This document shows, in pieces, positions 3,466 through 58,118 of a stretch of DNA of 64,000 nucleotides (position 1 is the stretch's first letter; every line of letters starts with the position of its first letter). The DNA comes from a bacterium (GTDB lineage Bacteria > 4484-113): positions 8,017 through 72,016 of the forward strand of contig JAGGTK010000053.1 in NCBI GenBank assembly GCA_021163765.1, read 5' to 3'. The notes beneath the pieces are model-generated. The model made no database searches. It was not told where the DNA came from and saw nothing but the letters and a program-made list of their open reading frames with translations. Made by a program: the position numbers and the translations under genes.

Positions 3466-3475
3466 GAGGACAGCG

Positions 3476-4285: not shown

Positions 4286-4288
4286 ACG

Positions 4289-7279: not shown

Positions 7280-7285
7280 TATATA

Positions 7286-7295: not shown

Positions 7296-7356
7296 GCATA
7301 ACCATGATAGTTTCTATGAAACAATGCGGATTGCACTGTGCTAATATTCTGGTATC

Positions 7357-30588: not shown

Positions 30589-31626
30589 TCAGTTAGCCTT
30601 GGAACCGGGACGTTCCGGGAAATGTCCTTTCGCATACTCGCTGGCGTGCTCCAGCTCATCCACGCGCTTCAGATAGGCAGCATATGTGCTGCTGCCTTCA
30701 GCATCTCGCGCCCTGGTGCAATACGCAATCATGCCACGCGCATAATCCCGGGCATCCTCAAAACGCTTCTCATCAATGAGCTGACGCAAGTAATAATCGT
30801 GACGCCTACACTCCTTCTGCCCTGCCTCAAGCTTCTCACGATGTTCCGTATACGCCGCGTGCTGCTGCTGATAGGACAAGTCCCCGGCGAAGCTGTGCTT
30901 AGCCATTACACTAGAAAGGCGAAGATTGGTTAACATGGTTCCCAGCATGACCCAGCCACCGAATATGGCGGCAATCAGCACTGCTATAGTCACAAGCGAC
31001 TTGAGCGCGCCACTGAAAGCTGTTTCTGAGCTGGAGAAAAGACCCCCAATGACCGGCAGGTCGTCAAGACCGGAAAAGAACTCACCCAGCTTCCGTATGC
31101 GAGGATCGCGCATGCCCATCGCGGAGCCCTTAGGATCCGATAGCGTCATCCCTTCAATCCCGGTGATTAGGCCGTCCTTAAACGTGAACTGGATAGTCTC
31201 GACCCGGTCGACGGCTTGCACTGCTCCGCCCTCTTCTTCCAGCGAGCCAAATATTTCGCTTTCCTCAGCGCCTTCGATACTTGTATCGCTGGCTGCCATT
31301 CCCAACAACCAGTTCCTCTGGAACGCTCCTGATATCTGAATGCCGGCCTCGGAACTTGTTTCCTGAAGCCCCGCCGCTTCAAAGTGATAATCATCACACC
31401 ACTCAAACCACTTCTCAACCCAGCCAGAGAAAGCATTCCGGTCCATCCCTCCGGCTTCGAATTCAGGATGAATTGTGGCTAGGACAGCGCTTGCATCGCC
31501 CGTCACGAAACCGGATGTAAAGCTCCTTACAGCTTCAGCCTCCTTACTAGCCAGCGCAGGCGATCCTGACACTCCTAGGATTACACTGGCAAGAACAGCG
31601 AGTTTCTTCCCGTGTTTGCCGAACAT
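30589..31626 (-). CDS. hypothetical secreted/membrane protein (signal peptide, one C-proximal TM helix)
   Basis: MFGKHGKKLAVLASVILGVSGSPALA signal peptide; TM LVTIAVLIAAIFGGWVMLGTML; no recognised domain. Confidence 0.5.
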   Translation of the reverse strand: MFGKHGKKLAVLASVILGVSGSPALASKEAEAVRSFTSGFVTGDASAVLATIHPEFEAGGMDRNAFSGWVEKWFEWCDDYHFEAAGLQETSSEAGIQISGAFQRNWLLGMAASDTSIEGAEESEIFGSLEEEGGAVQAVDRVETIQFTFKDGLITGIEGMTLSDPKGSAMGMRDPRIRKLGEFFSGLDDLPVIGGLFSSSETAFSGALKSLVTIAVLIAAIFGGWVMLGTMLTNLRLSSVMAKHSFAGDLSYQQQHAAYTEHREKLEAGQKECRRHDYYLRQLIDEKRFEDARDYARGMIAYCTRARDAEGSSTYAAYLKRVDELEHASEYAKGHFPERPGSKAN

Positions 31627-31836: not shown

Positions 31837-32133
31837 GTGGCTAACGCCGTGAAATATTGGCGAAAACCTTTGGACTTTGATGAGCTCACGATCCCCCACG
31901 GTATCGTGCATATCATCGTTGACCGCTGCAAAGGCTGCGGTTTCTGCGTGGAGTACTGCCCCAAAGGCGTGCTAGAAATGTCGGAGGAGTTTAACGCTAA
32001 GGGCTACCATCCGCCCAAAGTGGTCAAAGAAGGCGAGTGCGTGAACTGCAACCTGTGCGAGATGATATGCCCTGAGTTTGCGATATTCAGCGCCGACGCC
32101 TCCGATAATGGATCGGGCACGCATTCTAAGTAA
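31837..32133 (+). CDS. 2-oxoacid:ferredoxin oxidoreductase delta subunit (second copy)
   Basis: CKGCGFCVEYCP and CVNCNLCEMICP motifs; GTG start. Confidence 0.78.
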   Translation: MANAVKYWRKPLDFDELTIPHGIVHIIVDRCKGCGFCVEYCPKGVLEMSEEFNAKGYHPPKVVKEGECVNCNLCEMICPEFAIFSADASDNGSGTHSK

Positions 32134-32172
32134 TTTTTCTCCTTACAATGGTGAAGTAAAGGAGGACGACCA

Positions 32173-33330
32173 GTGAAAACAGACCCTTCAGGGGTGCTGA
32201 CTGGCCAACATTATCTTGATGGCGACCATGCCTGCGGAGAGGGCGCTATGGCCGCTGGCTGCAGATTCGTTGCCGGCTACCCCATCACTCCTTCAACAGA
32301 AGTCGTAGAGCGCATCTCGCGCAGATTCCCCATGATGGGAGGCACGTTCATCCAGATGGAGGATGAGATGGCCAGCATGGCGGCAATCATTGGCGCATCG
32401 TGGACTGGAACTAAATCAATGACCGTTACCAGTGGCCCCGGATTCTCCCTGATGATGGAGAATATCGGCCTCGCCGCGATGATGGAAACACCATGCGTCA
32501 TTGTGAACGTGCAACGTGGCGGGCCGTCCACGGGGCTACCAACAAATGTAGGCCAAGCGGATATGATGCAGGCGCGATGGGGTTCGCACGGTGACTACGA
32601 AATCATCGCTTTGAGCCCTCAGTCACCACAGGAGGCTTTTGACGTCATGATTGACGCCTTCAATCTCTCGGAGATTTACCGCGTGCCGGTAATGGTCATG
32701 ACGGACGAATGCGTAGGGCATATGACCGAAAAGGTCGTAATCCCCAAGGCTGAAGACATAGAAATAGTGCCACGCAAGCTTACTGATAAGCCGCCAGGCG
32801 AATTCTGGCCTTACGTTGCTGACAGGAACATGATACCGGAATTCGCGCGCGCAGGAGATGGTTACAGGTTCCATAGCACCGGCCTGACGCACAACGAGCG
32901 TGGATATCCGGTAATGAGCGCGGAGTGCCAGCAGGAATGCGTAACCCGGCTGGTAGACAAAATCCGCCTTAACGCTGAAGACATAGTCCGTTTCGAGGAA
33001 GAGGATATTGACGGCGCTGACGTTGTCCTCGTGACTTACGGTATCACCGCGCGTGTTGCGCGACGCGGCATCGATATCGCCAGGAATAAGGGCGTCAAGG
33101 TTGGCGTCATCAGGCTCATTGTTGTATGGCCGTTCCCCGAACGTCACATTCGCGAACTTGCACCCAAGATCAAGGCATTCGTGGTGCCTGAAATCAACTA
33201 CGGACAGATTGTGCTGGAAGTTGAACGCTGTGCGGCCGGGCAGACTCTTACCGTCCTTGTCCCCCATATGGGGGGCACGGTACATGACCCAGAAGACATC
33301 GCAAACGCTATTTTGGAGGCTGCCAAATGA
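32173..33330 (+). CDS. 2-oxoacid:ferredoxin oxidoreductase alpha subunit (second copy)
   Basis: paralogous to 2362..3465 (GYPITPSTEV, GASWTGTKSMT). Confidence 0.88.
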   Translation: MKTDPSGVLTGQHYLDGDHACGEGAMAAGCRFVAGYPITPSTEVVERISRRFPMMGGTFIQMEDEMASMAAIIGASWTGTKSMTVTSGPGFSLMMENIGLAAMMETPCVIVNVQRGGPSTGLPTNVGQADMMQARWGSHGDYEIIALSPQSPQEAFDVMIDAFNLSEIYRVPVMVMTDECVGHMTEKVVIPKAEDIEIVPRKLTDKPPGEFWPYVADRNMIPEFARAGDGYRFHSTGLTHNERGYPVMSAECQQECVTRLVDKIRLNAEDIVRFEEEDIDGADVVLVTYGITARVARRGIDIARNKGVKVGVIRLIVVWPFPERHIRELAPKIKAFVVPEINYGQIVLEVERCAAGQTLTVLVPHMGGTVHDPEDIANAILEAAK

Positions 33331-34307
33331 GCAAGGTCGCGGAGCAAATACCTACAGAAGAAATGGAACACCCAGTAGCGCCGTACTTGCGCATGGATCG
33401 CATCCCGCATATCTGGTGCCCCACCTGCGGCATCGGAACGGTTGTCAGATGCTACGCTGACGCGCTTGAGCATTCCAAAATCGACCTGGACAAGGTGGCT
33501 ATTGTTTCGGGCATTGGGTGCACAGGACGTGTTGCGGGATATATGAGGCTTGATGCCTTTCACACCACCCACGGTCGTGCTATACCGTTTGCAACCGGCC
33601 TGAAGCTGGGCCGGCCTGAGTTGTTGGTTACTGTTTTCTCCGGCGACGGAGACCTGGTTGGCATCGGTGGTAATCACTTCATCCACGCTGCTCGTCGTAA
33701 TCTGGACATACTCGTTATCCTTGTAAACAACTTCATTTATGGAATGACCGGCGGCCAGAACGCTCCAACAACCCCGACGACTGCCAGAACATCTACCATG
33801 CCTTTTGGCAATTTCGAAAGGCCATTCAACCTGCCTCACCTGGCGGAGAGCTGTGGCGCTACATACGTGGCACGCTGGACTAGCCTGCATATTCGCAGGC
33901 TGACCAAGTCGTTCAGAGAGGCGATTAGCCGCAAGGGCTTCCGCTTCGTTGAGGTTATTGCTCCTTGCGCCACTCTGTATGCCCGCCTGAACAAGCTGGG
34001 GACCGGCTTCAACCTGATGCGGTTCTATCACGACAATGCGGTCATTGACCACGGAGCCGATACTCGCGACCTCGACATCAGCTTCCAGGACAGGATTATT
34101 TGTGGGAAGTTCGTGGACAAAGAGCGTCCGACATATAGTGAAATGATGCACGAGCACTATAGAAATGCCCTCGGCGACAAATTCGTGCCTTTACCTGAGG
34201 AAGGTGGAATGATACGCGATACTGGGGAAAAACCAGATTCCAAGGGCAAGAAGCCGGCTAAAAGCCAAAAGCGCAAGGCTTCGGCATCTAAATCCAGTAG
34301 AAAATAA
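33327..34307 (+). CDS. 2-oxoacid:ferredoxin oxidoreductase beta subunit (second copy) with Lys-rich C-terminal tail
   Basis: CPTCGIG, GIGCTGR, TPP-binding GDGD; stop overlaps next start (TAATG). Confidence 0.88.
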
Positions 34308-35539
34308 TGGAAGCGGCGCCAAATAAAAGAGCCCTCGTGATCGGCGGTGGCATCGCAGGCATTCAGGCGGCCTTGGACCTAGCCAACGCTCGCATTCCAG
34401 TAACACTGGTGGAGAAGTCCCCTACCCTGGGTGGGCGAATGGCCCAGCTCGACAAGACGTTCCCCACCATGGATTGCAGCATTTGAATCCTCGGCCCAAG
34501 AATGCTGGATGCCGGTCGGCATCCCCTGATAGATGTGATCTCCAACGCCGAGGTTATCGGTTGCGAAGGCAAGCCAGGTGACTTCAGCGTCCGTGTGCGT
34601 AAAAACAAGCGGTACGTACGGGAAGACCTCTGCGTCGCCTGTGGATTATGCACCGATGCCTGTCCGGTCATCGCGGGCAACGAGTTCGATGTAGGACTGA
34701 AAGCCCGCAAGGCAATCTACCGCCCGTTCCCGCAGTCCGTACCTGCGGCATACGTAATAGACCCTGAGTTCTGCATTAACCTTCTGGGACACCTCAGCGA
34801 GAAGCAAATTCGCAGGTTGGAGAAAATCCAGAAGGTCAAACAGCGCAAGAATCTGGACTACAGCTCCAACATCCTTCCCTGTGGGCACTGTACTGAAGCC
34901 TGCGAAGTCAATGCTATCGACTTTGATATGCAGATAGAGGAAAAGGACCTGAATGTCGGGGCGATATTGGTCGCTGTGGGATTTCAGGAATTCGATGCCC
35001 GCAAGCTGGGCAACTACGGCTACGGCCGCTTCCCTAATGTGGTCACCAGCCTTGAATTAGAGCGGATGCTGAACGCCTCCGGAGTGACCCAGGGCCATGT
35101 CGTGCGGCCGTCCGATATGAAGACCCCAAAGCGGTTAGTGTTTATCCAGTGTGTGGGCGCCCGCGGCGAAGGCGGGCGACCGTATTGCAGCCGCTTTTGC
35201 TGTATGAACGCTGTAAAAGATTCTATGCTGGTGCGGCAGCACGATCCGGAAGTTGAGGATGTCACCATCCTCTATACCGACCTCCGCGCTTTCGGCAAAG
35301 GATTCGACGACTTCGTGCAGCGGTCACGTGACGAAAAGAGCGCCACTTACGTACGAGGACGCCCCGCAAAGGTGGATATCGTTCCTGAGAATGACACGCT
35401 GGAAGTGTTCGTTGAGGACACGCTGGGGCATGAGCAGAAACGCATCCCCGCAGACCTGGTCGTGCTTTCGGTTGCTGCCGCGCCAAACGACGGTGCGGCA
35501 GATCTCTTTGATATCTTAGGGATTAACAGGGTGGAGTAG
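34307..35539 (+). CDS. HdrA-like flavoprotein module 1 (FAD domain + inserted 2x[4Fe-4S] ferredoxin), probable selenoprotein (UGA 34484-34486); ends at in-frame TAG 35537-35539
   Basis: [17 protein letters not shown] motif; [15 protein letters not shown] aligns with conserved DCSMCIL of HdrA; [13 protein letters not shown] and [12 protein letters not shown]; reading frame continues into next ORF. Confidence 0.75.
34507..34524 (+). promoter_or_regulatory. bacterial SECIS-like hairpin GGATGCC-GGTC-GGCATCC starting 20 nt after the UGA codon
   Basis: perfect 7-bp stem with GGUC apical loop (same loop as E. coli fdhF SECIS). Confidence 0.65.
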
Positions 35540-35542
35540 GGT

Positions 35543-37459
35543 TTGGGCCCCGAAGGAATTGCCGAGGCCCCCGCGGGGGAGAGCACCCGCGACGGTATCT
35601 TCGTGTGTGGCAGCGCGGTCGGCCCCCAGATAATTCCTGATTGTGTCGCGCAAGCATCGGCGGTCGCAGCCAGAGCACAACTGTTTTTAACCGGTCATCG
35701 AGTTGAGAAGCACGAGGAGCCCGTTGAGCTCCTGGACGTCACCGGTAAGCCGCGGATAGGAATCCTCGTCTGCCATTGCGGCATTAACATCGCGGGCGTA
35801 TTAGACATTGACGACCTCGTGCAGTACGCAACCGCTTTGCCGGATGTGGTGGCGGCTGCTGGCAGCACATTTGCCTGCTCTACAACAGGGCAGGACGAGC
35901 TGGTAGAGCTGATACGCGAACATAATCTGAATCGCCTTGTCATCGCCGCCTGCACCCCGCGCACTCACGAGCCTATATTCCGCGAAACCTGCACCCACAT
36001 TGGCTTCAACCCATACCTTATCGAGATGGTGAATATCCGTGACCAGTGCTCATGGGTGCATACCGGACAACCCGTCGAGGCGCAGGAAAAGGCACGTACG
36101 CTTATAAGGATGGGTGTTGCCCGGGCCCGGCAACTGGAGCCGCTGTTCGAAGGCGAAGTCCCGATGATGCACTCGGCTCTCGTAATTGGCGGTGGAATCG
36201 CCGGTATCCAGGCTGCAACAGACCTGGCAGTGCAGGGGTTCCCCGTTACGCTCGTTGAAAAGGAAGGGCAACTCGGAGGTCGCCTTGCGAAGCCACACCT
36301 GAAATACCTGTATCCCAATATGCGGCCGGCGACTGAGGTACTGGAAGCAAAACTCAAGCTACTTGAGGAAAGCGGCGCCAGAGTCCTGCTTAACACTGAT
36401 GTTGAGAGCATTACCGGATATGTGGGCAACTTCGAGGCTAATCTGACAGGGGAAACTGAAGAGCTCCTCCAGGTTGGCGCCATTATTTTAGCTGTCGGGG
36501 CGGATCTCTACGATCCTGAGGAAGAATATGGCTATTCGAAGTTTCCCAACGTAATCACAAGCCAAGAGCTGGAAACGATGCTGGTGGAGGACGACAAGAA
36601 CGTCGAGATTGCCGGCAGCCGTCCCAGGAGCGCGTCCTTTGTGCTGTGCGTTGGGTCGCGGGATCCGGAGCATTTCCCCGGCTGTTCGCGCTACTGCTGC
36701 CCTACCGCGATAAAGCAAGCTATCCTGCTGCGACGCATGGGGATGGATATAACCATCTTCTACCGCGATATCCGCACGATTTCGACCGGTGCGGAGGAAA
36801 TGTACCGCGAGGCCAGAGGTTTGGGAGTTCTGTTCATCCGGATCCCTGAAGGCGACAAAGTCCAGGTAAGCGGGACAGACCACGCTGAATCGGTGCGATG
36901 CTTCGACGACCTTCTCGGCCGACACCTCGAAGTGCCCACTGACCTGGTCGTGTTAAGCGTGGGCATGCAGCCCAAGCAACCTGAAACATCAAAGTTCCAT
37001 GACATCCTGAAGGTTAGCGTCGGGCTTGACGGCTTCTTCATGGAGCTGCACCCGGAGCTCGGCCCGGTGGAAACCCCCGTGGAGGGCGTGCTTCTTGCGG
37101 GAACGGCTCAGGGGCCGAAAGATATTGTGGATACCGTCGCCCAAGCTTCCGCTGCCGCTGCGAAGGCCTCTATATTCCTGGCGCATGACACCGTTAGCCT
37201 CAATCCAGCGGTATCTGAGGTGATTGAGGAAAAATGCCGGGGCTGCGGCACCTGCGCGGAAATCTGCGAATTCCATGCACCCGCACTCGTCGAGATCGAG
37301 CCTGGCACCTTCGTCGCGCGTATCAACGCCAGTCTTTGCAAGGGTTGCGGCACGTGCACCAGTTGGTGCCCCTCCGGCGCGATTGTCTCCAAGCATTTCA
37401 CCGACCGGCAGGTCCACGCGATGATTGATGCTCTGTTCACAACTGAAACATCGAAATGA
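35543..37459 (+). CDS. HdrA-like flavoprotein module 2, preceded in-frame by the C-terminal FAD-domain strands of module 1
   Basis: first approx. 50 aa (DGIFVCGSAVGPQIIPDCVAQASAVAA) complete module-1 FAD domain; then HdrA N-domain GILVCHCGINIAG, FAD motif [15 protein letters not shown]-terminal CRGCGTCAEICE/CKGCGTCTSWCP; TTG start with GGTGGAG RBS if TAG is a real stop. Confidence 0.7.
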   Translation: MGPEGIAEAPAGESTRDGIFVCGSAVGPQIIPDCVAQASAVAARAQLFLTGHRVEKHEEPVELLDVTGKPRIGILVCHCGINIAGVLDIDDLVQYATALPDVVAAAGSTFACSTTGQDELVELIREHNLNRLVIAACTPRTHEPIFRETCTHIGFNPYLIEMVNIRDQCSWVHTGQPVEAQEKARTLIRMGVARARQLEPLFEGEVPMMHSALVIGGGIAGIQAATDLAVQGFPVTLVEKEGQLGGRLAKPHLKYLYPNMRPATEVLEAKLKLLEESGARVLLNTDVESITGYVGNFEANLTGETEELLQVGAIILAVGADLYDPEEEYGYSKFPNVITSQELETMLVEDDKNVEIAGSRPRSASFVLCVGSRDPEHFPGCSRYCCPTAIKQAILLRRMGMDITIFYRDIRTISTGAEEMYREARGLGVLFIRIPEGDKVQVSGTDHAESVRCFDDLLGRHLEVPTDLVVLSVGMQPKQPETSKFHDILKVSVGLDGFFMELHPELGPVETPVEGVLLAGTAQGPKDIVDTVAQASAAAAKASIFLAHDTVSLNPAVSEVIEEKCRGCGTCAEICEFHAPALVEIEPGTFVARINASLCKGCGTCTSWCPSGAIVSKHFTDRQVHAMIDALFTTETSK

Positions 37460-37920
37460 CTCCGACCAAAACCAAACGCAAGGCAAAGTCCGGTTCCACA
37501 AAGTGGAACCCCAACATCGTGGTTTTTGCGTGCAACTGGTGTTCATACGCGGGTGCGGATACCGCCGGAGTTTCGCGAATCCAGCATGAACCGCACTTCA
37601 GGATGATCCGCGTAATGTGCTCCGGTCGCATCCAGCCAGGCTTCGTTCTCAAGGCTTTTGAGAGGGGAGCGGACGGCGTTCTGGTCTCTGGCTGCCACAT
37701 CGGCGACTGCCACTACATCTTTGGAAACGAGCGCGCACTGGAGCAGTTCGAGAAGACTAAGAATATGGTCAGGCTCCTCGGCCTGGAGGAAGGGCGGCTT
37801 CGTTTGGAATGGATAAGCGCCGCTGAGGGCGCACGATTTGCCGAGGTTATCAACGATTTCACTGCCCAGGTGCGGAAACTGGGGCCGAGCCCACTCAACA
37901 CCGGCAATGGGGAACGCTAA
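37456..37920 (+). CDS. methyl-viologen-reducing hydrogenase delta subunit homolog (MvhD/FlpD)
   Basis: VVFACNWCSYAGAD and VSGCHIGDCHY motifs; start overlaps upstream stop (ATGA). Confidence 0.85.
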   Translation: MTPTKTKRKAKSGSTKWNPNIVVFACNWCSYAGADTAGVSRIQHEPHFRMIRVMCSGRIQPGFVLKAFERGADGVLVSGCHIGDCHYIFGNERALEQFEKTKNMVRLLGLEEGRLRLEWISAAEGARFAEVINDFTAQVRKLGPSPLNTGNGER

Positions 37921-37926
37921 AGGGAT

Positions 37927-39087
37927 ATGAAAACGACTTCAACCCCTGAAATTGCGGAAATCGCCGATAAGGCCAGAGCGTGGGCCTGCTACGACTGCGG
38001 GAAATGCACGGCGACCTGCCCCATTGCCCGGGTTGGCGGCGCTCTCAGCCCCCGGCGGCAGGTGCTGGCAGCCAATCTCGGTCACCGCGAGGACATTATT
38101 ACCAATAATGCCCTTTTCGCCTGTCTTACCTGCGGGTTGTGCAGCTCACGTTGCCCTGCCGGAGTGGTTTACTGCGAGCTGGTTCTAAACCTGCGCCAGC
38201 TCGCATTCCACGACGGCGTTGAGCCTGAGTGCCCGCACGGCGGCGCACTTCAATCAATGATGCGAATGATGGCCAAGGGTAAAACAAAGCAAGACCGCCT
38301 AAGCTGGCTGACCAAAGATTTGAAGGTTCAGCACAAGAAGGGAGATGTTTTCTACTGGACCGGTTGCACGATGTACTACGATGCGTTCTTCCCCGACTTC
38401 AATATCACGACTCTGGACGCTACACGGGCTGCCATTCGCGTACTGAACCGACTGGGCGTGACGCCGGTAGTTTCACCGGACGAGCGATGCTGCGGGCATG
38501 ACCTTCTGTGGAACGGTGACCGGGCGAATTTTGAGCTCCTCGCAAGGCATAACGTTAAACTCGTTGAATCCAGCGGCGCAAAAACGCTTGTCATCTCCTG
38601 TGCTGAGTGCCTGCGAACATGGAATATCGACTACCAGCCATTCTTTGAGACTAGCCCTCCAAAGATTATGCATATAACCGAGTTTATGCAAGAAAATCTG
38701 GATAATCTGAAGTTCAAAGCCAACAAGGAGCATACGGTCACTTATCAGGACCCCTGCCGGCTGGGCAGGCACCTAGGGATCTTCGATCCGCCGCGCGCTA
38801 TACTAGAAGCACTGCCTGATATCACCCTGGCGGAAATGCCCCGCTCCGGAAAAAACTCCATATGCTGCGCTGGGGGGACTTGGTCTAACTGCGACCGCTA
38901 CGCCAAGCACATCCAGGTAGACCGCCTGCGCGAGGCAAAGTCAACAGGTGCTGAGTTCCTTGTTACGTCCTGCCCTAAATGCCAGATACATTTCGCATGC
39001 GCTATGAAAGACCCGAATTTACACGAGGAGATTGAAATCCCGATGCGCGATATCGCCACGCTGGTTGCAGACGCGCTGGCGGATTGA
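37927..39087 (+). CDS. HdrD-like subunit (HdrC-type 4Fe-4S dicluster domain fused to HdrB-type double CCG domain)
   Basis: CYDCGKCTATCP and CLTCGLCSSRCP; CCG motifs ERCCGHD and SICCAGG. Confidence 0.82.
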   Translation: MKTTSTPEIAEIADKARAWACYDCGKCTATCPIARVGGALSPRRQVLAANLGHREDIITNNALFACLTCGLCSSRCPAGVVYCELVLNLRQLAFHDGVEPECPHGGALQSMMRMMAKGKTKQDRLSWLTKDLKVQHKKGDVFYWTGCTMYYDAFFPDFNITTLDATRAAIRVLNRLGVTPVVSPDERCCGHDLLWNGDRANFELLARHNVKLVESSGAKTLVISCAECLRTWNIDYQPFFETSPPKIMHITEFMQENLDNLKFKANKEHTVTYQDPCRLGRHLGIFDPPRAILEALPDITLAEMPRSGKNSICCAGGTWSNCDRYAKHIQVDRLREAKSTGAEFLVTSCPKCQIHFACAMKDPNLHEEIEIPMRDIATLVADALAD

Positions 39088-39131
39088 CCCAATAATGATG
39101 AATTTGATGGAACCTGTAGGGACTCTCTCAA

Positions 39132-41597
39132 ATGGGAGGAGAATTAATGGACAGTGACCCGAAAGGTGACGGACTGCGAGTAGGCGTCTTCGTATGTGAT
39201 TGCGGCCTTAACATCGCGGGGACGGTCGACACCCAGGCAGTGACAGATTACGCGGCAACTCTTCCAGACGTCGTGTGCGCCATCCGGAACCGCTACACCT
39301 GTGCTGATCCGGGGCAGAACGAAATCAAGAAAGCCATTGCCGAGCACCGCCTGAACCGAGTAGTTATCGCTTCCTGCACCCCGTTACAGCACGAGCCCAC
39401 ATTCCGGACCTGCGTCGCTGAGGCAGGCCTTAATCGTTACCTCATGGAAATGGCCAACCTGAGGGAACAATGCTCCTGGGTACATCCCAGCGACATGGAG
39501 GGCGCTACCAGAAAGGCGAAAGACCTGGTAGCAGGCGCAGTGGCACGGGCACGAAATCTGCAGCCGCATGACGACCTGTCGGTTCCTGTCACCAAGCGCG
39601 CGCTTGTCATCGGGGGAGGTATAGCCGGCATGGAAGCTGCGCTCGAGCTGGCCGACTCGGGGCATCAAGTGGTACTGGTTGAAAAGGAGGCATCCATCGG
39701 TGGGATTATGGCTCAACTGGACAAAACATACCCCACCATGGATTGCTCCATATGAATTCTCGGCCCTAAGGCCATAGATGTCGGTCGACATCCAAACATA
39801 GAACTCCTAACCTACAGCGAGGTAGTGAATGTATCGGGCTACATCGGTAACTTTACGGCGGAAATCCGCCGGAAGGCGCGCTATGTGGACCCGGAGGCAT
39901 GCACCGCATGTGCGGAGTGCGCCCAGGTGTGCCCGGTGGTGAAACCCGACGAGTATCAGATGGGGCTATCCTCCCGGAAAGCCATCTACATTCCCTACCC
40001 CCAGGCGGTGCCATCCTCCTACATCCTTAATATGGAAGATTGCCTGGGAACCAATCCCATCGCCTGTGGAAAGTGTGCCGAAGTATGCGAGCCGGACTGT
40101 ATCAATTATGATGACCGCGACATAATCGTCAAGCGTGATGTGGGTGCGGTAATCGTGGCAATCGGCGCTGACGTGTATGACCCCACCGAGATGGATGAAT
40201 ACGGCTACACGCGCTTCGACAATGTGATCACTTCCATGGAATTCGAGCGCCTAATATGCGCTGGTGGGCCGACGCTGGGCCACTTTGTGCGACCGAGTGA
40301 CCATGAGCGTCCGAAGCGCATCGGCTTCATACAATGTGTTGGATCCCGAAATCCTAGCATTGGGAGGCCCTACTGCTCCAATATCTGCTGCATGAACACC
40401 ATCAAGGACACTCTCCTGTTGGCTGACCATTACCCGGACGTAGAGTGCACCGTGTTTTACCAGGACATTAGAGCTTTCGGGAAGTCGTTTGAGGACATGT
40501 TCCAGCGCTCTAAGGAGGCTGGCACCCGTTATATCAGAGGAATACCGGGTGATATTGAAGAGGATACTGAAACCGGCAACCTCACCCTCATAGCAGAAAA
40601 CACCACTAGCGGCAAGATAGAGCGTCATGAGTTTGACATGGTTATCCTATCCGTTGGGGTCGGACCGCCCAAGGATCTTGCTAAAATCTCCAGTCTGCTA
40701 ACACTCTCCAAGACCTCGGATGGCTTCTTCATGGAGTCCCATCCGAAACTGAAGCCTGTTGATGCCCCCACGCGCGGAGTTTTCTTCTCTGGCTTTTGCG
40801 AATCCCCCAAAGACATCAAGGATTCTGTATGTCAGGCCGGTGCAGCTGCTTCACGCGCTGGCGCGCTGCTTAACGCGGGCCAGGTCCATATTGAGGCGAT
40901 TACCAGCGTGATTGACGCGGATGCCTGCAAGAAGTGCGGTGTATGTGCGAGCGTTTGCCCCTATGGCGCAATCACATGGAAGAAGGGCGAAGTGGCCGTT
41001 GTCATCGACGCCGCGTGCGCGGGCTGCGGAAACTGCGGCGCCGCCTGCAAATTCGACGCGATTACGATGCGCCACTTCACAGACGCGCAGTATATGGCTC
41101 AGATTCGCGCCATCCTGGCCGAAGACCCGCAGGACAAAGTCTTCGTGTTTGCGTGTAACTGGTGCTCATACAGCGGCGCGGATATGGCTGGCATTTCACG
41201 AATGCAATATCCGGCCTCCAATCGAATCGTAAGGACTATGTGCTCAGCGCGTGTCTCCGAGGATATGGTGCTTGAAGCGTTCCGTTGCGGCGCACCGGTG
41301 GTTCTCGTTTCCGGCTGCCATTACGCTGACTGCCACTATATCACTGCAAACAGGCAAACCGTTCAGCGCGTCCAGCGCCTGTGGAACAAGCTGGAGAAAG
41401 CCGGTGTCAGGCCGGAACGGCTGCAGCTCGAGTGGATTAGCGCCGCCGAGGGCCAGAAGTTCGCCAAGGTGATGGCCCAGATGGAGGAATTGCGAAAAAC
41501 GGTGACGGAGGAGGAAATCGAGTACACGATTGAGGCTCTAAAGCCAAAACCCAGGAAGCCTAAGAAGGAGAAGGAAGCTGCCGCAGTGGCCGGGTAG
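39132..41597 (+). CDS. HdrA-MvhD fusion flavoprotein, probable selenoprotein (in-frame UGA 39753-39755)
   Basis: single frame through 39132..39755 and 39825..41597; N-domain VFVCDCGLNIAG; [14 protein letters not shown]; YPTMDCSI-TGA-ILGP; inserted and C-terminal ferredoxin motifs; C-terminal MvhD domain (VFVFACNWCSYSGAD, VSGCHYADCHY). Confidence 0.78.
39777..39792 (+). promoter_or_regulatory. bacterial SECIS-like hairpin GATGTC-GGTC-GACATC starting 21 nt after the UGA codon
   Basis: perfect 6-bp stem with GGUC loop; same spacing and loop as the element at 34507. Confidence 0.65.
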
Positions 41598-41621
41598 CGG
41601 CTGACGGCCCGGAGGTCTCAT

Positions 41622-41798
41622 ATGGCAACAATGGAGAACTTCAAATGTATGTTGTGCGGTCACGAGTACCAGGAACTCGTTGAAGAAGGCGAGGACAAGG
41701 AACGCTCCTGTCCCAAGTGCCGTTCCAACAGCATTCGACATCTTAAGAAACGCGCCTCGCAGGGTGATTCCGATGACAAAGGCAAGAAAACCGAATAA
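41622..41798 (+). CDS. FmdB-family zinc-ribbon protein (58 aa), below the 60-aa ORF-track threshold
   Basis: MATMENFKCMLCGHEYQELVEEGEDKERSCPKCRS (CxxC-n17-CxxC); GGAGG RBS 6 nt upstream; overlaps hdrC start by 26 nt in another frame. Confidence 0.6.
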   Translation: MATMENFKCMLCGHEYQELVEEGEDKERSCPKCRSNSIRHLKKRASQGDSDDKGKKTE

Positions 41799-42294
41799 CG
41801 ACGATGTCGTAAAGGTAGACTTCGACTTCAGGCGCCAGCTCGCCAAGAAAGTCGAGGGCAACCTGGCCAGCTTTTGTTATCAGTGCGGGGCCTGCGTGGG
41901 CGATTGCCCTGCCGCAACCTACAGTGACGAGTTCAACCCCCGGGAGATAATGCTCAAAGTGTTATACGGACTTGGCGAGGAACTGCTGGTGGAGAACTCA
42001 GTATTGTGGCAGTGCACCAACTGCTACAACTGCGCAGAGCGATGCCCCCAGGACGTTAAGCCGGTCGAGGTCATCATCTCGCTGAAGAATATGCTCGCGG
42101 ACCTGAATATCTATCCCCCTACCGTGGAAAAGATCATCGGCACATTTGAGAAAACCGGCCGTACAACTCCCCTAAGCCCTGCGGTGGACCGGCAGCGCGA
42201 GCGGTTTGGGCTGCCACCGATGAAGCCTGTCCCCATGGACGAGATCAGCAAGCTTCTTGAGCCTGCATCCGATGAGGAGGATGATGCAGAGTGA
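41773..42294 (+). CDS. hdrC: heterodisulfide reductase subunit C-like (2x[4Fe-4S])
   Basis: CYQCGACVGDCP and CTNCYNCAERCP; likely start ATG 41773 (ORF open from 41680). Confidence 0.8.
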   Translation: MTKARKPNNDDVVKVDFDFRRQLAKKVEGNLASFCYQCGACVGDCPAATYSDEFNPREIMLKVLYGLGEELLVENSVLWQCTNCYNCAERCPQDVKPVEVIISLKNMLADLNIYPPTVEKIIGTFEKTGRTTPLSPAVDRQRERFGLPPMKPVPMDEISKLLEPASDEEDDAE

Positions 42295-43181
42295 AGCCCT
42301 TTGCATTTTTCCCCGGCTGCCTGATTCCTGTTCGCTATCCGGCGATGGAGTTCGCCATCCGCCAGACCTTGCCCAAGCTGGGCATCGAAATAGTTGACCT
42401 TGAAGGCGCGTCCTGCTGCCCTGACCCAATCTACTTCAAGTCCAAGGACAAGGTCGCGTGGCTCTCCGTTGCTGCGCGCAACCTTACGCTGGCCGAAGAT
42501 CTGGGCCTAGATGTGTTCACTAACTGCTCCGGTTGCACTGCAACGCTTTCGGAGGCTTACCACCTTCTGAAGAACGACGAACTCAGAGAAAAGGTCAACA
42601 GGCGACTTAAAAAGATTGGCCGCAAGTACAAGGGCACGAGCAGAGTCCGGCACGTTGCGACCCTTGTTCGTGATGAAGCAGGCTACGACGCGGTGCGTGA
42701 ATCGGTCGTGCGCCCGCTGGACGGTATGAAAATGGCCATTCACTACGGCTGCCACCTGCTGAAGCCGAGCAAGATTATGAACGTAGACGACCCCAACAAC
42801 CCTGAAGTCCTGGAAAAAATGGTAGAAGCTATTGGCGCCACTCCGGTGCGCCATCGCAACTGGTATCTCTGTTGCGGAAAGGCCTGCCAGCATGAGGCTA
42901 TTCCCCTGAATATGATGCATGCCCTGCTGGGCACGGTGAAGGACGTGGAAGCGGAAATCCTGTGCCTAATCTGTCCAACCTGCTTCAGCCAATTCGATCA
43001 CGGCCAGATGAAGGTCGCCAAGCACTTCAACGACGATTACCACATCCCGCCGGTATACTACTTCCAATTGCTAGCTTACGCACAGGGCATTCCCTATGAT
43101 AAGCTTGGGTTTGACCGCCAGCGGTTCAAGCCTGAAAGCCTGCAACGCTTTGCAACCTCATCGGCACAGGTGGAAAATTGA
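42291..43181 (+). CDS. hdrB: heterodisulfide reductase subunit B-like (two CCG domains)
   Basis: GASCCPDP and YLCCGKAC CCG motifs; GTG start overlapping hdrC stop (GTGA). Confidence 0.82.
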   Translation: MKPFAFFPGCLIPVRYPAMEFAIRQTLPKLGIEIVDLEGASCCPDPIYFKSKDKVAWLSVAARNLTLAEDLGLDVFTNCSGCTATLSEAYHLLKNDELREKVNRRLKKIGRKYKGTSRVRHVATLVRDEAGYDAVRESVVRPLDGMKMAIHYGCHLLKPSKIMNVDDPNNPEVLEKMVEAIGATPVRHRNWYLCCGKACQHEAIPLNMMHALLGTVKDVEAEILCLICPTCFSQFDHGQMKVAKHFNDDYHIPPVYYFQLLAYAQGIPYDKLGFDRQRFKPESLQRFATSSAQVEN

Positions 43182-43215
43182 TCAGTGATATCTGTCAATC
43201 CTGGAGAGTAACGAA

Positions 43216-43776
43216 ATGAGCACTACTGAACTTCGAGTCAGCGGCTTTGGCGGCCAGGGCGTGATTCTCTGCGCCTATATCATCGGCCGCGCTGCGGCGC
43301 TACATGACGGGAGACATGCCACGCTTACCCAGAGCTTTGGCCCTGAGGCCCGCGGCAGCGCGTGTAGCGCCCAGGTAATCCTGTCCGATGACCCTGTTCT
43401 ATATCCGTACGTGCAGCATCAGAATGCCCTTGTCTGCATGTCCCAAGAGGCTTATGACAAGTTCGAGCCGGAGACAGACACCGACGGCATCCTGCTTTAC
43501 GAGGAGGAGCTTGTCACGCCCCACGAACCGCGCGCCGACATGAAAGTGTACGGTATTCCAGCCACCCGAATCGCTGAGGAACTCGGGCGAATAATCGTGG
43601 TTAATATCGTGATGCTCGGCTTCTTTACAGCGACTACAGGTCTGCTCCCAATGGAGGCGGCCCGCAAAGCGGTTGAAGAATCTGTTCCTGAAGGCACCGA
43701 GAAACTCAACCTGGCCGCTTTCGACCGTGGCTATGAATACGGAATTAAGCTGGTTGAAGAAAAAGCAGCGAAGTGA
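43216..43776 (+). CDS. 2-oxoacid:ferredoxin oxidoreductase gamma subunit (second copy, separated from D-A-B by the Hdr module)
   Basis: VSGFGGQGVIL gamma-family motif, paralog of 4289..4852. Confidence 0.85.
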   Translation: MSTTELRVSGFGGQGVILCAYIIGRAAALHDGRHATLTQSFGPEARGSACSAQVILSDDPVLYPYVQHQNALVCMSQEAYDKFEPETDTDGILLYEEELVTPHEPRADMKVYGIPATRIAEELGRIIVVNIVMLGFFTATTGLLPMEAARKAVEESVPEGTEKLNLAAFDRGYEYGIKLVEEKAAK

Positions 43777-43846
43777 ACAAATCAGCTATCCGTTTTTATA
43801 GTTGACGCTGGCGGAATCCCTAAGCCTCTATGCTATTCTAGATTAC

Positions 43847-44692
43847 ATGCCACAGAAGGTTACCAGGCTGTCCGCTACGAAAATATCCACTTTCGAACAG
43901 TGTGCTAAATACTATGAGTTTCAGTATGTGCACCGGGCCAAAAGGTCGTTCACGCCCATCGAATGGGAAGTTGGCAGCATTGTCCACGATATTATCGCCA
44001 GGCTGTTCAGGCAAATCAGGGATAAGCAACGTGGCACAATCCCCAAGCTCGGCAATGCGGAATGGTACCGCCCGCTTCTGGCCGACGCCACCTCGAATCT
44101 GCGGAACCAGGTAGACGAGGGAATTGTGCGCATTGTTAGGCCCGATGAAAGGATGCAATCATACGAGGAGCAGATGGACAACGCGCTAGGCACGTTCACT
44201 GCCAAGGCCCTGCCCTTGCTTCATGACCACAAGATTGTGGGCGTGGAAGCAGACCTAGGGCGGTTTAATCTGGATGGGATTCAGATAGATGGACGACTTG
44301 ACCTTATAACTCAATCTGGCGGCAACCTTTACGTGCACGACTGGAAGACCGGCGGTCGCCGCGACGAGGATGCGCGCCAGGCTAAAATATACTACTTCGC
44401 ATCCAAGGACAAGTACCGCCAACCAGCTACGACATTCACGCTCTACTACCTGGCAGAAGCAGGTGATATCGTCACATCTTATACCTTCAGCCAGGAACAG
44501 CGGGCGCTGCTTAGCGCCGAGATTGCTGACATCGCTGCGCGGATAAACGCTCTTGAAACATATCAGGCCCGAGTTTCGGTCTTATGCCACTGGTGCCCCT
44601 ACGGGCCCCAATGCGACGAAGGAAACGCGTATATGTCCGCCCATCCTCCACCAGTGAAGAAAGACCAGATAGACCTGGGCCTGGTAACGTGA
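43847..44692 (+). CDS. Cas4-like / RecB-family PD-(D/E)xK nuclease with Fe-S cysteine cluster (no adjacent cas genes)
   Basis: N-terminal Cys (FEQCAKYY), DGRLDLI..LYVHDWKTG core, C-terminal CHWCPYGPQC (CX2CX5C); ATG 43847 preferred over 43802. Confidence 0.65.
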   Translation: MPQKVTRLSATKISTFEQCAKYYEFQYVHRAKRSFTPIEWEVGSIVHDIIARLFRQIRDKQRGTIPKLGNAEWYRPLLADATSNLRNQVDEGIVRIVRPDERMQSYEEQMDNALGTFTAKALPLLHDHKIVGVEADLGRFNLDGIQIDGRLDLITQSGGNLYVHDWKTGGRRDEDARQAKIYYFASKDKYRQPATTFTLYYLAEAGDIVTSYTFSQEQRALLSAEIADIAARINALETYQARVSVLCHWCPYGPQCDEGNAYMSAHPPPVKKDQIDLGLVT

Positions 44693-44693
44693 G

Positions 44694-45620
44694 TTACGCT
44701 GGCTGGCTCACCAGGTAGTTAAAACTGTGAGCCTCGGTGATGGGATGGCTGAAGCTACGGCTTCTACGGTTCATTGCCTCGAGCATCTTTCCCAGTCCTT
44801 TTAGCATCGCAACGTCACGCACAATGAGAAGCCATAGGTGCATATGCTGGCAATGGCTAAGAAACTCGCTCATCCAGTCGATGTAGTCATCCTCGCTATC
44901 GAAATGGGAGCCGAAGAAATATCCCGAAGGCAGGATACCAGGCAGACTGAACTGCTCATTTACCAATACTTCGCGCACCTGAATAAAAGGCGGCAGCGCC
45001 CCGTAACCTTGCGCAGGGGGGACATCTACGATAAGTACACGCGCCGCTATGTTCTCAAGGGTTTCCCGGTCAATACGCTGATAGGATTCATTAACCTCAC
45101 GATTCGATCTGAAGGGTCGCTTTATTTCGCGCAGGTAGAATCTCACAGCTTCAGACAAACGAAGTCCTCGGTCATTCGGGCCGCTATTTATGAGGTAATA
45201 CTTGGCCAGGTGCCACAGGAAGTAATGCAGCGTTGCGCGATGGTAACGCGTACGGTCGAAAACTGGGAGCTTCTTAATCTCTCTTTCATACTCGCAGAAT
45301 CCAGATGGAAGCATAACGCCGTTACGCTTTACCGCTTCGCTCTGCGACGCGTCAAAGTCCATTACGTCAGCCAGCTGCTGAATCCGCCTCAAATCGACGT
45401 TTGAGAGGAGGAACCTGTCATTCTCTATCAGCGCCAAATCGTACTCGTAAGCCCCCGGTAACACGGTATTGGTGATGACACGAACCCGGAAGTTGCGTTT
45501 GATGAACTGCTCGGTGTTTCCCACAACAGTATTTAGATAGACGACGTTGGTGTGGCGGTAGAATCTCAGCGTATCGCTGAAGAAATGCGGGAACGTCGCA
45601 AACTCAATAGAGTTGCACAT
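44694..45620 (-). CDS. hypothetical protein (308 aa), convergent with and abutting the nuclease gene
   Basis: long ORF without recognisable motifs apart from a VDVPPAQGYG segment. Confidence 0.45.
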   Translation of the reverse strand: MCNSIEFATFPHFFSDTLRFYRHTNVVYLNTVVGNTEQFIKRNFRVRVITNTVLPGAYEYDLALIENDRFLLSNVDLRRIQQLADVMDFDASQSEAVKRNGVMLPSGFCEYEREIKKLPVFDRTRYHRATLHYFLWHLAKYYLINSGPNDRGLRLSEAVRFYLREIKRPFRSNREVNESYQRIDRETLENIAARVLIVDVPPAQGYGALPPFIQVREVLVNEQFSLPGILPSGYFFGSHFDSEDDYIDWMSEFLSHCQHMHLWLLIVRDVAMLKGLGKMLEAMNRRSRSFSHPITEAHSFNYLVSQPA

Positions 45621-46888
45621 CAGGCATCATCCTCCAGCTTCTCCACCTCTAAAGCGTCTTCTTCAAAGAACCGGGAAATGTCCGGGTCGAAGTAGCTGCC
45701 AAACCCATCCTCAATCACGTAACGAACCTGCTCGGCAGCAAAGTGCTTAGGTACAGATCGCAAATGCGTCAGCGCATCCGCAAGGTCACAAAGATGAAGA
45801 ACACGTGCGAGCAGCGGGATATCGTCCCCTTTTAGGCCGCCCGGGTAGCCGCATCCATTCCATCTCTCGTGGTGGTGGAGCACAGCCGCGACCACCTCGC
45901 TGAATCCGCTCAGTGGTTCAAGTATGGTCGCCGCATACTGAGGATGTTTCTGTATCACTTTGTACTCCATGTCGTTCAGCATACCTGGCTTATCCAGAAT
46001 CGAGTTCGGGATGCCGACTTTGCCGATATCGTGCAGGTTCCCTGCGATGACCAGAGTCTGCAACTCCTGCTCGGACAGCTTCATCTGCTCGCCCACTCGC
46101 TGGCACAAGCGCGCCACCCTTTTGCTGTGTAGCGCTGATTCCTTGTGCTTCGCTTCAAGCAAAGCGAGAAGAAAGTTCACGATGATACTGACATAGTCCT
46201 CACGCAACTGCGCAATGACGTCTTCCTGCAGTTCCATCGCGTTTAGAACCTCTTCATCTTCCGGTGAGCACTCGGTATCGTCGGCAAGCCCCTCTTCCGT
46301 CAGCTCTATCAACGGGCGAACAAGTGAAGGGTTAAACTGGATGCCCGCGAAGCGCATCAGTTCGCTATCCCAGTCTTCCGGCTTGCTGAAAAGACCACCC
46401 CGGCGTATGTTATCGAATGCATCGCAAAGCGAAACGATCTGGGCCAGCATCGGCGTCTCATCCATAGTCAGGCCCTCCGGATAGCCGGTGCCATCCCAGC
46501 GCTCGTGGTGCCACAGGATGAGACGCGCCGCAGTTGCAAGCACGGGGATCTGGCTGGCTATCTGCTGTCCGACAGCAGTGTGCGTAGTAAGGACCTGGAA
46601 CTCCTCCTCGCTCAGCTTCCCCTTCTTGTATAAAAGGCTGTCGGGAACACCTATCTCGCCGATATCGTGCAGCAATCCCGCGAAGTAGACCTGAGCCAGC
46701 GTTATCTGGTCGCTTATGCCGACTCTGCGCGCAAGCCGCAGGCAGTTCAGCGCCACACGGTCACTGTGTTGCGCATCCTTTTGCTCTACTAAATTCACTA
46801 CCCGCGATGTCGCCTCAAGAAGCTCGTGGAAAAGCCGCGCGTTCGGGTTGCGCCTGCCGTATTGCTCACTGAAGAATTCGTTAAACAT
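45620..46888 (-). CDS. tandem HD-GYP domain protein (putative c-di-GMP phosphodiesterase)
   Basis: two HD domains, each with HHERW(D/N)G(T/C)GYP motif. Confidence 0.82.
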   Translation of the reverse strand: MFNEFFSEQYGRRNPNARLFHELLEATSRVVNLVEQKDAQHSDRVALNCLRLARRVGISDQITLAQVYFAGLLHDIGEIGVPDSLLYKKGKLSEEEFQVLTTHTAVGQQIASQIPVLATAARLILWHHERWDGTGYPEGLTMDETPMLAQIVSLCDAFDNIRRGGLFSKPEDWDSELMRFAGIQFNPSLVRPLIELTEEGLADDTECSPEDEEVLNAMELQEDVIAQLREDYVSIIVNFLLALLEAKHKESALHSKRVARLCQRVGEQMKLSEQELQTLVIAGNLHDIGKVGIPNSILDKPGMLNDMEYKVIQKHPQYAATILEPLSGFSEVVAAVLHHHERWNGCGYPGGLKGDDIPLLARVLHLCDLADALTHLRSVPKHFAAEQVRYVIEDGFGSYFDPDISRFFEEDALEVEKLEDDA

Positions 46889-46894
46889 ACGGCC

Positions 46895-58027: not shown

Positions 58028-58118
58028 GTAAAAGCCCTCCCCTCTGAATTGATGCTCATCATTCTAAGTGAATGACGCCTTGCCGGTCAAGCGTTCAGCT
58101 GGAGAATTAGGCGATATA

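Follow-up and report, generated by a model that had tools for sequence, protein, structure and literature searches.

The 64,000-nucleotide stretch of DNA analyzed here (hereafter the window; positions 8,017 to 72,016 of contig JAGGTK010000053.1, assembly GCA_021163765.1, from a bacterium of GTDB lineage 4484-113) carries a plus-strand operon of ~11.9 kb (31870–43776) of tightly packed open reading frames (ORFs), in which genes for heterodisulfide reductase (Hdr) proteins are bracketed by those for a 2-oxoacid:ferredoxin oxidoreductase (OFOR), with delta, alpha and beta upstream and gamma downstream. An earlier inspection of the letters alone (the sequence-only reading) had singled out the middle of this operon, 37456–41597, as containing a free MvhD, an HdrD-like fusion and an HdrA–MvhD fusion. 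All three were borne out by their Pfam domains and intact cysteine motifs in profile searches with Pfam and NCBIfam, for which all ORFs of at least 150 residues in the window were scanned. That account left out the tandem HdrA gene (34307–37459), both selenocysteine (Sec) codons, the OFOR gamma and zinc-ribbon genes and the embedding of the whole within an OFOR operon, and its HdrA is one 822-codon gene with an in-frame TGA, not a 590-residue protein. A genome scan with one genome per species found relatives of the HdrD-like gene in at least 586 species, and neighborhoods were mapped for the 80 best loci (the related loci below). The features of the operon are as follows:

31870–32133, plus strand: OFOR delta, 87 residues, with two CxxCxxCxxxC motifs; called as a gene in contigs L001–L003 of the related loci
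32173–33330, plus strand: OFOR alpha (POR_N 1.5e-71, PFOR_II)
33327–34307, plus strand: OFOR beta, binding thiamine diphosphate (TPP) (TPP_enzyme_C 1.2e-32)
34307–37459, plus strand: tandem HdrA, 1,051 codons, with an in-frame TGA at 34484–34486 (Sec)
34508–34523, plus strand: hairpin resembling a selenocysteine insertion sequence (SECIS), with a 6-bp stem and GGUC loop, 25–40 nt past the UGA of the tandem HdrA
37456–37920, plus strand: free MvhD, a [2Fe-2S] relay protein (FlpD PF02662 4.7e-52; five conserved Cys)
37927–39087, plus strand: HdrD-like HdrC/HdrB fusion, with a 4Fe-4S dicluster and two CCG domains (1.6e-26)
39132–41597, plus strand: HdrA2-type HdrA–MvhD fusion, 822 codons, with TGA at 39753–39755 in MDCSI-U-ILGPK
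39777–39792, plus strand: SECIS-like hairpin GAUGUC-GGUC-GACAUC, downstream of the HdrA2 UGA
41622–41798, plus strand: zinc-ribbon protein, 58 residues, CxxC...CPKCRSNSIR (Zn_ribbon_8 4.2e-06, under the Pfam cut-off)
41773–42294, plus strand: HdrC, with two CxxCxxCxxxC motifs
42291–43181, plus strand: HdrB, with two complete CCG motifs (CCG 7.6e-28)
43216–43776, plus strand: OFOR gamma (POR 1.7e-35), the 3' end of the operon

At alpha/beta, beta/tandem HdrA (TAATG), tandem HdrA/MvhD and HdrC/HdrB, the stop codon of one gene overlaps the start of the next. Promoter and terminator scans of the window returned sites no more frequently than in shuffled sequence and are hence uninformative, and an Rfam scan of the operon gave no matches. 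The Hdr genes fall into two sets, the first made up of the tandem HdrA (a selenoprotein), the free MvhD and HdrC/HdrB, and the second of the HdrA2-type HdrA–MvhD fusion (also a selenoprotein), the HdrD-like fusion and the zinc-ribbon protein.

The HdrA–MvhD fusion spans two ORFs of 207 and 590 residues that lie in one frame with a TGA between them, forming a single gene with an 821-residue product. This product scores 1136.6 bits on the NCBIfam HdrA2 model NF040770 (cut-off 1100), covering profile positions 1–776 of 777 with U read as C, and shows the motifs GGGIAG (FAD-binding Rossmann fold), C..CSxxCC and CxxCxxCxxxC at residues 257, 599 and 629. The portion at 39825–41597 contains two ferredoxin motifs and the FlpD domain (4.3e-43), with the MvhD cysteine set at residues 675, 678, 704, 729 and 734. 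Both MvhD domains retain the five conserved cysteines, and the free MvhD shares 46% identity with that of the fusion. Of the related loci, 69 of 70 encode HdrA and MvhD as a single fused chain.

The HdrD-like protein combines two CxxCxxCxxxC motifs with two full C..CC..CxxC (CCG) motifs, all intact, and so has the two N-terminal [4Fe-4S] clusters and two CCG motifs in a single chain that are characteristic of HdrD; its PDB matches are to HdrC in the N-terminal part (4.8e-11) and HdrB in the C-terminal part (1e-05). No HdrE-type membrane cytochrome b, the partner of HdrD, was found in the operon or the related loci. The separate HdrB and HdrC likewise carry their characteristic motifs (two CX31-39CCX35-36CXXC motifs in HdrB and two dicluster motifs in HdrC), and HdrB reaches 295.6 bits on TIGR03288 against a cut-off of 345, making it a relative of that family rather than an equivalog. 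The proposal from the sequence-only reading of two distinct CCG-type sites in one cluster thus stands, as the motifs of HdrD and HdrB are both intact. In 9 of 56 loci (L028, L046, L030, L021, L025, L024 and three more), HdrC and HdrB lie in one frame with no stop between them, so that these loci hold a second HdrD-like HdrC/HdrB fusion.

The tandem HdrA consists of two units that, when aligned to the HdrA2 protein, retain different domains: unit 1 has the CxxU motif together with the inserted ferredoxin domain and is without the N-terminal and C-terminal ferredoxin domains, whereas unit 2 keeps the N-terminal and C-terminal domains and is without the CxxU motif and the inserted domain. In 62 of 63 related loci the two halves share a frame and no stop separates them. 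In this window only, they are split by a TAG (35537–35539), which sits in a 54-nt patch (35525–35578) that departs by 21 substitutions from four metagenome contigs nearly identical to the window elsewhere; the sequence on either side of the patch is identical, and all four contigs read TAC where the window has TAG. The patch is probably an assembly artefact or a strain-specific lesion, and we rejected the TAG as a third recoding site given this window-specific divergence and the 62 of 63 other loci without a stop. The tandem HdrA is duplicated in L010, L012, L029, L035 and L078, where one copy carries a GltD/NfnB-like insert in its inserted ferredoxin domain; the tandem HdrA of the window has a 28-residue insert where the extra copy of other loci has the GltD/NfnB-like one.

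In both HdrA genes the in-frame TGA falls within a CxxU motif, with the reading frame conserved on either side. Every related locus that holds these genes has TGA at this codon in both of them, and the unlinked paralogues of HdrA found in these loci carry TGC or TGT. The hairpin at +25 to +40 nt after the UGA (6-bp stem, GGUC loop) is nearly invariant at synonymous sites among 65 distinct sequences of the tandem HdrA and 64 of HdrA2; its pair 29–36 is CG in 47, UG in 10 and UA in 8 of the former and CG in 39, UA in 15, UG in 9 and CA in 1 of the latter, a compensatory change. Such conservation and covariation in a hairpin, for which Rfam has no model, is the signature of a bacterial SECIS, and the Escherichia coli fdhF SECIS likewise has a GGUC apical loop. 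The in-frame UGA within CxxU and the conserved GGUC-loop hairpin together lead us to assign both HdrA genes as selenoproteins. A tRNA scan of the window found no tRNA gene, and hence no tRNA-Sec there. The Sec position is that of Cys/Sec197 in methanogen HdrA, which lies between the flavin and the cluster of the N-terminal domain on the ferredoxin branch and whose role has been left open (PMC9012536, PMC13518236); Sec197 itself is present in Methanococcus HdrA (PMC13518236). Two obligate selenoproteins per cluster would make a natural test set for this residue, whose role is still open in the 2026 Methanococcus super-assembly structure. Public gene calls (L001–L004) cut both Sec genes at the UGA, leaving pieces of 59 + 985 and 202 + 590 residues, and because gene callers split both genes in this way the tandem HdrA and the full HdrA2 architecture are hidden in databases, a practical annotation problem in public records.

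The OFOR has the composition of a four-subunit enzyme of the KOR/OOR type, namely alpha, TPP-binding beta, gamma and a delta with two [4Fe-4S] clusters. Its alpha subunit scores 565.8 bits on NF006412 (2-oxoacid:acceptor oxidoreductase alpha; cut-off 411), with 1yd7 (1.8e-107) and 8ys5 (4.6e-77) as top PDB matches. The best specific matches are to 2-oxoglutarate models, all under their cut-offs (369 bits against 579 for alpha, 232 against 364 for beta, 69 against 125 for delta); the top NCBIfam matches of delta are OGOR_delta (2.5e-19) and OorD, both likewise under cut-off, and gamma scores 205.9 against 235 on NF006323. Judged by these profile scores the OFOR is closest to KOR/OOR-type enzymes, and 2-oxoglutarate may be its substrate. 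Genomic context offers hints in the same direction, with a citrate synthase gene inside the L068 cluster, aconitase just downstream in five Zixibacteria loci and isocitrate dehydrogenase as well in four of these. Another OFOR, of the VorB type and with three genes (alpha, beta, gamma), lies at 2362–4852 of the window (NF005507 487 bits, cut-off 399), shares 39% identity with the operon alpha and is unlinked to hdr genes.

The cluster is broadly distributed and its OFOR and Hdr genes have remained together. Homologues of the HdrD-like protein number more than 5,000, at 60–72% identity in other phyla, and the same cluster occurs in more than 10 phyla, in every case as metagenome-assembled genomes (MAGs). 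Carriers include Planctomycetota/Phycisphaerae, Acidobacteriota (including Ca. Sulfomarinibacter), Gemmatimonadota, Zixibacteria, KSB1, WOR-3, Eisenbacteria, 'Cytophagia' and Deltaproteobacteria. Among the 58 informative loci (those with enough upstream sequence), OFOR genes adjoin the Hdr genes in 57, HdrA2–MvhD is present in all 58 and HdrB in 52; MvhD lies directly upstream of HdrD in 75 of 78 loci. Median identities to the window are 78% for OFOR alpha, 80% for HdrA2, 79% for MvhD and 62% for HdrD, and the pairwise distance matrices of OFOR alpha and HdrA2 or HdrD are strongly correlated (r = 0.89–0.90, Mantel p = 0.001), from which we conclude that the OFOR and Hdr genes share one history; the correlation speaks to co-inheritance rather than contact. 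The view of the OFOR as the neighboring redox enzyme, already put forward by the sequence-only reading, is strengthened by this linkage and covariation. OFOR gamma directly follows beta in most phyla and stands at the 3' end only in the lineage of the window. The zinc-ribbon gene is kept in 67 loci, always right after HdrA2–MvhD, even in variants without HdrC/HdrB. Flank families that recur are MarR, GNAT, hemerythrin and GlnD-like proteins; a MarR-family regulator lies directly upstream of OFOR delta on the same strand in ~20 related loci, with GNAT acetyltransferase and hemerythrin genes recurring nearby, and no MarR gene was found upstream of OFOR delta in the window.

More distant members of the family keep the OFOR, MvhD, HdrD, HdrA2(Sec)–MvhD and the zinc ribbon and have replaced the tandem HdrA and HdrC/HdrB. 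In L061 (4642–9948) the replacement consists of NuoE-, NuoF- and NuoG'-like genes with a single HdrA-like gene, and in L068 (5413–9726) and its relatives of a GltD/NfnB-like–ferredoxin–MvhD fusion; several loci of the window type possess an extra tandem HdrA with a GltD/NfnB-like insert. These sister variants suggest that the free or fused MvhD is a socket for a variable third partner module and that the OFOR is the constant partner; the third module would be a second Hdr set in the lineage of the window and one linked to NAD(P)H in certain others. Because the sister clusters swap in NAD(P)H-binding modules joined to MvhD, the family appears to connect the OFOR (~-500 mV) via flavin with two further components, a partner of mid potential and a CCG substrate of high potential. 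Within the operon of the window the Pfam scan turned up no NuoF- or FlxA-type domain and none that binds NAD(P)H, such modules being seen only in the sister variants.

We hypothesize, and hold it to be somewhat more probable than otherwise, that the products of the operon cooperate in a soluble system of flavin-based electron bifurcation or confurcation with the OFOR as its low-potential partner. Known systems guide this reading. In solved methanogen complexes, electrons pass from MvhD to the HdrA flavin, whence one branch leads to HdrC/HdrB and another, via Cys/Sec197 and the N-terminal cluster, to ferredoxin (PMC9012536, PMC13518236). The HdrA2B2C2 of Methanosarcina acetivorans, which contains an HdrA–MvhD fusion, is a ferredoxin- and F420H2-dependent heterodisulfide reductase that operates with no hydrogenase (PMC5296606). 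We place the OFOR at the ferredoxin position because the HdrA2B2C2 family uses reduced ferredoxin without a hydrogenase and by analogy with the methanogen complexes; membership of the fusion in HdrA2 supports the partnership, since electrons at the level of reduced ferredoxin are what an OFOR delivers. The OFOR would thereby fill the role of free ferredoxin, or of formylmethanofuran dehydrogenase in the methanogen Hdr supercomplexes. Electrons would be exchanged between OFOR delta, with its two [4Fe-4S] clusters, and the ferredoxin-like domains in the HdrA units, would then cross the CxxU/FAD sites and would end at the noncubane-cluster CCG sites of HdrD and HdrB, which may reduce or oxidize a thiol/disulfide or possibly a quinone. 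The flow could run as 2-oxoacid oxidation feeding disulfide reduction, or as bifurcation-driven reductive carboxylation, and we infer that the OFOR and Hdr proteins are in physical contact.

On this proposal the MvhD [2Fe-2S] units would be wires joining flavoprotein modules rather than points of entry for H2 or formate, and a hydrogenase or formate dehydrogenase would be unnecessary. The sequence-only reading had regarded the MvhD domains as the sole candidate electron-entry modules, which we do not uphold: MvhD is a [2Fe-2S] relay without a substrate site, and the family of the HdrA2-type fusion takes electrons from ferredoxin. Its observation that no hydrogenase or formate dehydrogenase lies nearby proved correct, with no such domain in the ORFs scanned across the 64-kb window, and no such family recurs within ~6 kb of ~75 related loci. 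The FlpD domain and cysteines expected of a hydrogenase-associated MvhD are present, but the MvhA/MvhG or FdhAB partner is absent from the window and the flanks of the related loci.

A bolder form of the hypothesis is that the OFOR and the two Sec-HdrA modules constitute one ferredoxin-free supercomplex, a bacterial counterpart of the methanogen Hdr–Fmd/Fwd assemblies, in which bifurcation directly drives, or is driven by, a TPP-dependent 2-oxoacid (probably 2-oxoglutarate) synthase/oxidase, with a bacterial thiol/disulfide couple as second partner and the invariant CxxU essential to the low-potential branch. We offer this tentatively and would sooner expect it to fail than to hold in full. 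If true, it would add a thirteenth kind to the bifurcating enzyme systems, one that is widespread among the uncultured phyla of sediments. The known bifurcation partners of Hdr are H2, formate, F420H2, NADH (Flx) and methylene-tetrahydrofolate (Met); a hard-wired OFOR partner would tie bifurcation to a C–C bond-forming or bond-breaking step of the (reverse) tricarboxylic acid (TCA) cycle or of 2-oxoacid metabolism. The cluster suggests a so far uncharacterized way in which electron bifurcation could be coupled to central carbon metabolism with neither hydrogen nor formate involved. As for the high-potential substrate, the window encodes a dihydrolipoyl dehydrogenase (24891–26285, minus strand; TIGR01350 534 bits, cut-off 409) and the lipoyl(octanoyl) transferase LipB (58068–58799, plus strand), which indicates that the organism makes lipoylated proteins, and a lipoyl-type dithiol is conceivable as the Hdr substrate.

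Several observations weigh against the proposed OFOR–Hdr system. No reliable OFOR–Hdr gene fusion was found among the related loci, the single in-frame gamma-to-HdrA case (1 of 49) coming from a frameshift-ridden assembly. Free ferredoxin could be all that the OFOR reduces, given that it brings along a delta ferredoxin subunit, and its subunits fall under the curated 2-oxoglutarate equivalog cut-offs, which leaves more than one 2-oxoacid as a candidate substrate. The bifurcation scheme is thermodynamically under-determined because the window-type cluster is without an obvious mid-potential donor, and no conserved thiol-carrier gene was found near the cluster in related loci. The tandem HdrA of the window is interrupted by TAG, so this copy may be defective or mis-assembled, and every known carrier is an uncultured MAG.

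The alternative that best survives, and that we nonetheless consider unlikely, is that the OFOR and Hdr enzymes are co-regulated but separate, with free ferredoxin diffusing to HdrA2-type ferredoxin:disulfide oxidoreductases and neither supercomplex nor channeling. The full delta/alpha/beta/gamma set of the OFOR and the want of a reliable fusion agree with it, as does the functioning of M. acetivorans HdrA2B2C2 with soluble ferredoxin (PMC5296606). However, OFOR delta is the only conserved ferredoxin gene in the cluster, and the retention of the OFOR beside Hdr in 57 of 58 loci across more than 10 phyla, with congruent divergence, is tighter than is usual for partners connected by nothing more than a diffusible carrier; the genome, moreover, holds another OFOR, the VorB-type enzyme, that is unlinked to Hdr.

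Improbable, in our estimation, is a route in which the HdrD-like protein (perhaps also HdrB) feeds the membrane quinone pool in the manner of the CCG proteins of the GlcF, GlpC, LdhH and SdhE type, giving a 2-oxoacid- or NAD(P)H-linked quinone-dependent bifurcation analogous to FixABCX. HdrD does match TfrB (152 bits), the quinone-dependent LdhH (114 bits), GlpC and GlcF in NCBIfam, all under cut-offs, its best solved relative is an 'iron-sulfur-binding reductase' (9ojn_A, 3.2e-31), and the missing thiol-carrier gene would fit a quinone. Yet the two CCG motif pairs are as complete as those of an HdrB that reduces disulfides, the cluster has no membrane-anchor or cytochrome b gene, and all its products look soluble by domain content.

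We give very little credence to a canonical Mvh/Fdh-dependent Hdr, in which a hydrogenase or formate dehydrogenase encoded elsewhere docks on MvhD and the OFOR neighborhood is incidental. In methanogens MvhD does serve as the adaptor to MvhAG or FdhAB, the hdr genes frequently lie apart from those for Mvh (PMC6085437), and our check of the genome covered 64 kb. Such an enzyme is, however, missing from the window and from the recurrent flank families of ~75 loci, whereas the OFOR linkage is near-universal; HdrA–MvhD fusions work without hydrogenase (PMC5296606, PMC2702500), and the MvhD of sister variants instead has NAD(P)H-binding modules fused to it or beside it.

Slighter still are the chances that the tandem HdrA, MvhD and HdrD are a BamE/BamF/BamD-like input module of a class II benzoyl-CoA-reductase-type system, with its catalytic subunit elsewhere and the OFOR supplying reduced ferredoxin: no AOR-family (BamB) or BamC gene occurs in the window or any mapped locus, on which ground we rejected Bam membership, and the carriers are mostly sediment lineages, not known aromatic degraders. 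What commends it is the composition, which resembles BamDEF in pairing HdrD-like and MvhD-like proteins with an HdrA-like selenoprotein, the NuoE/NuoF/NuoG'-like genes of L061, comparable to BamGHI, and the 2-oxoglutarate:ferredoxin oxidoreductase that is the ferredoxin-reducing partner in Geobacter.

The sHdr systems of sulfur oxidizers (hdrC1B1A-hyp-hdrC2B2) also contain two different CCG-type HdrB/HdrC sets per cluster, as in the window. The HdrA of the operon matches the sHdrA structure PDB 6tjr at 8e-35; sHdrA is without ferredoxin and MvhD domains, and the LbpA, DsrE and TusA genes of sHdr clusters are all absent from the window cluster. With these defining partner genes missing, membership in sHdr was rejected.

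The proposed OFOR–Hdr system draws together elements that are known individually. It resembles HdrA2B2C2 in its HdrA–MvhD fusion (same domain order, above the HdrA2 cut-off), the HdrC/HdrB-type CCG subunits alongside and the lack of a hydrogenase or formate dehydrogenase, and differs in its bacterial host, Sec for Cys in a CxxC-like motif, the adjacent HdrD-like fusion, the second, tandem HdrA set and the OFOR operon; CoM-S-S-CoB and F420 are unlikely substrates here. The methanogen MvhAGD–HdrABC and Fdh/Mvh–Hdr–Fmd/Fwd supercomplexes (PDB 5odc, 7bkb, 8rvu) include Hdr–Fmd assemblies that channel low-potential electrons to a CO2-fixing enzyme (PMC13580544, PMC13518236). They share with the operon an HdrA (5.9e-134 to 5odc_A), MvhD as a [2Fe-2S] adaptor and, in Methanococcus, Sec197 of HdrA, and their low-potential branch is wired to that CO2-fixing enzyme; unlike them, the operon has no hydrogenase or formate dehydrogenase input, its candidate partner is a TPP-dependent OFOR as opposed to Fmd/Fwd, and there are two HdrA types and two CCG subunits.

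Tandem HdrA proteins with complementary loss of the N-terminal domain and Cys197 have been described in the Met-Hdr HdrA of Moorella and in HdrA3/4 of anaerobic methanotrophic archaea (ANME) (PMC9012536). By that description of the tandem HdrA, and in the free MvhD and HdrC/HdrB, the first set is like the MetFV–HdrABC–MvhD of Moorella and Sporomusa and the HdrA3/HdrA4 of ANME (PMC9012536, PMC9430772); unlike MetFV–HdrABC–MvhD, it has no MetF/MetV, has Sec at the retained Cys197 position and is partnered with an OFOR. In Desulfobacterium autotrophicum, hdrA/hdrL-mvhD loci place MvhD beside Sec-containing HdrA-like genes without Mvh, and HdrA–MvhD fusions have been described (PMC2702500). HdrL is an HdrA/GltD fusion resembling the GltD-type variants of our sister loci; unlike the window, the Desulfobacterium loci are without the OFOR operon and their gene sets differ.

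A precedent for the OFOR linkage is found in the reverse TCA clusters of tubeworm symbionts and Thioflavicoccus mobilis, in which korABCD and tfrAB are interspersed with flxABCD-hdrABC and direct electron shuttling from a bifurcating Hdr to the 2-oxoglutarate oxidoreductase (OGOR) has been proposed (PMC6315080). As there, a four-subunit 2-oxoglutarate-type OFOR is interspersed with hdr genes; those clusters, however, have an FlxABCD (NADH) donor and TfrAB and come from different taxa, whereas the window has no Flx or TfrA genes and instead has a tandem HdrA, two MvhD, HdrD and two selenoproteins. This tubeworm-symbiont kor-flx-hdr arrangement was the only association of Hdr with a 2-oxoacid oxidoreductase that we found in the literature, and none of the twelve catalogued types of bifurcating enzyme has an OFOR partner (PMC6085437). 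Hence MvhD without Mvh, HdrA–MvhD fusions, tandem HdrA and kor-hdr interleaving are already known, and what appears undescribed is the OFOR-embedded, doubly Sec-dependent architecture, of which we found no description in the literature searched, with subscription journals mostly outside its coverage. Papers on Sulfomarinibacter and WOR-3 handle Hdr and Kor separately.

The cluster is widespread, strongly conserved, uncharacterized and approachable by experiment, and the mechanism proposed for it derives from genomics alone. Its carriers are abundant but uncultured (Phycisphaerae, Ca. Sulfomarinibacter, Gemmatimonadota, Zixibacteria, KSB1, WOR-3), and MAG surveys list 'korABCD' and 'hdrABC' as unrelated entries; protein searches for a cultured carrier gave MAGs or unnamed metagenome proteins only.

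Other genes of the window were recorded in passing. Divergently upstream of the operon, on the minus strand, are a PyrK/NfnA/FlxA-like FAD/NAD(P)-binding [2Fe-2S] protein (29704–30582) and a 345-residue protein with no family match (30589–31626), whose adjacency is not conserved in other phyla. The PyrK/FlxA-like protein was considered as a hidden NAD(P)H module and not counted in, as its adjacency to the cluster is not conserved elsewhere. Unlinked to the operon is an additional HdrD/GlcF/LdhH-like Fe-S and CCG protein of 449 residues (7357–8706), accompanied by a LysR regulator (6395–7432, minus strand). OFOR gamma is followed by a PD-(D/E)XK nuclease gene (43802–44692), and farther downstream, at 45620–48469 on the minus strand, an HD-GYP-type phosphodiesterase stands back to back with a GGDEF diguanylate cyclase.

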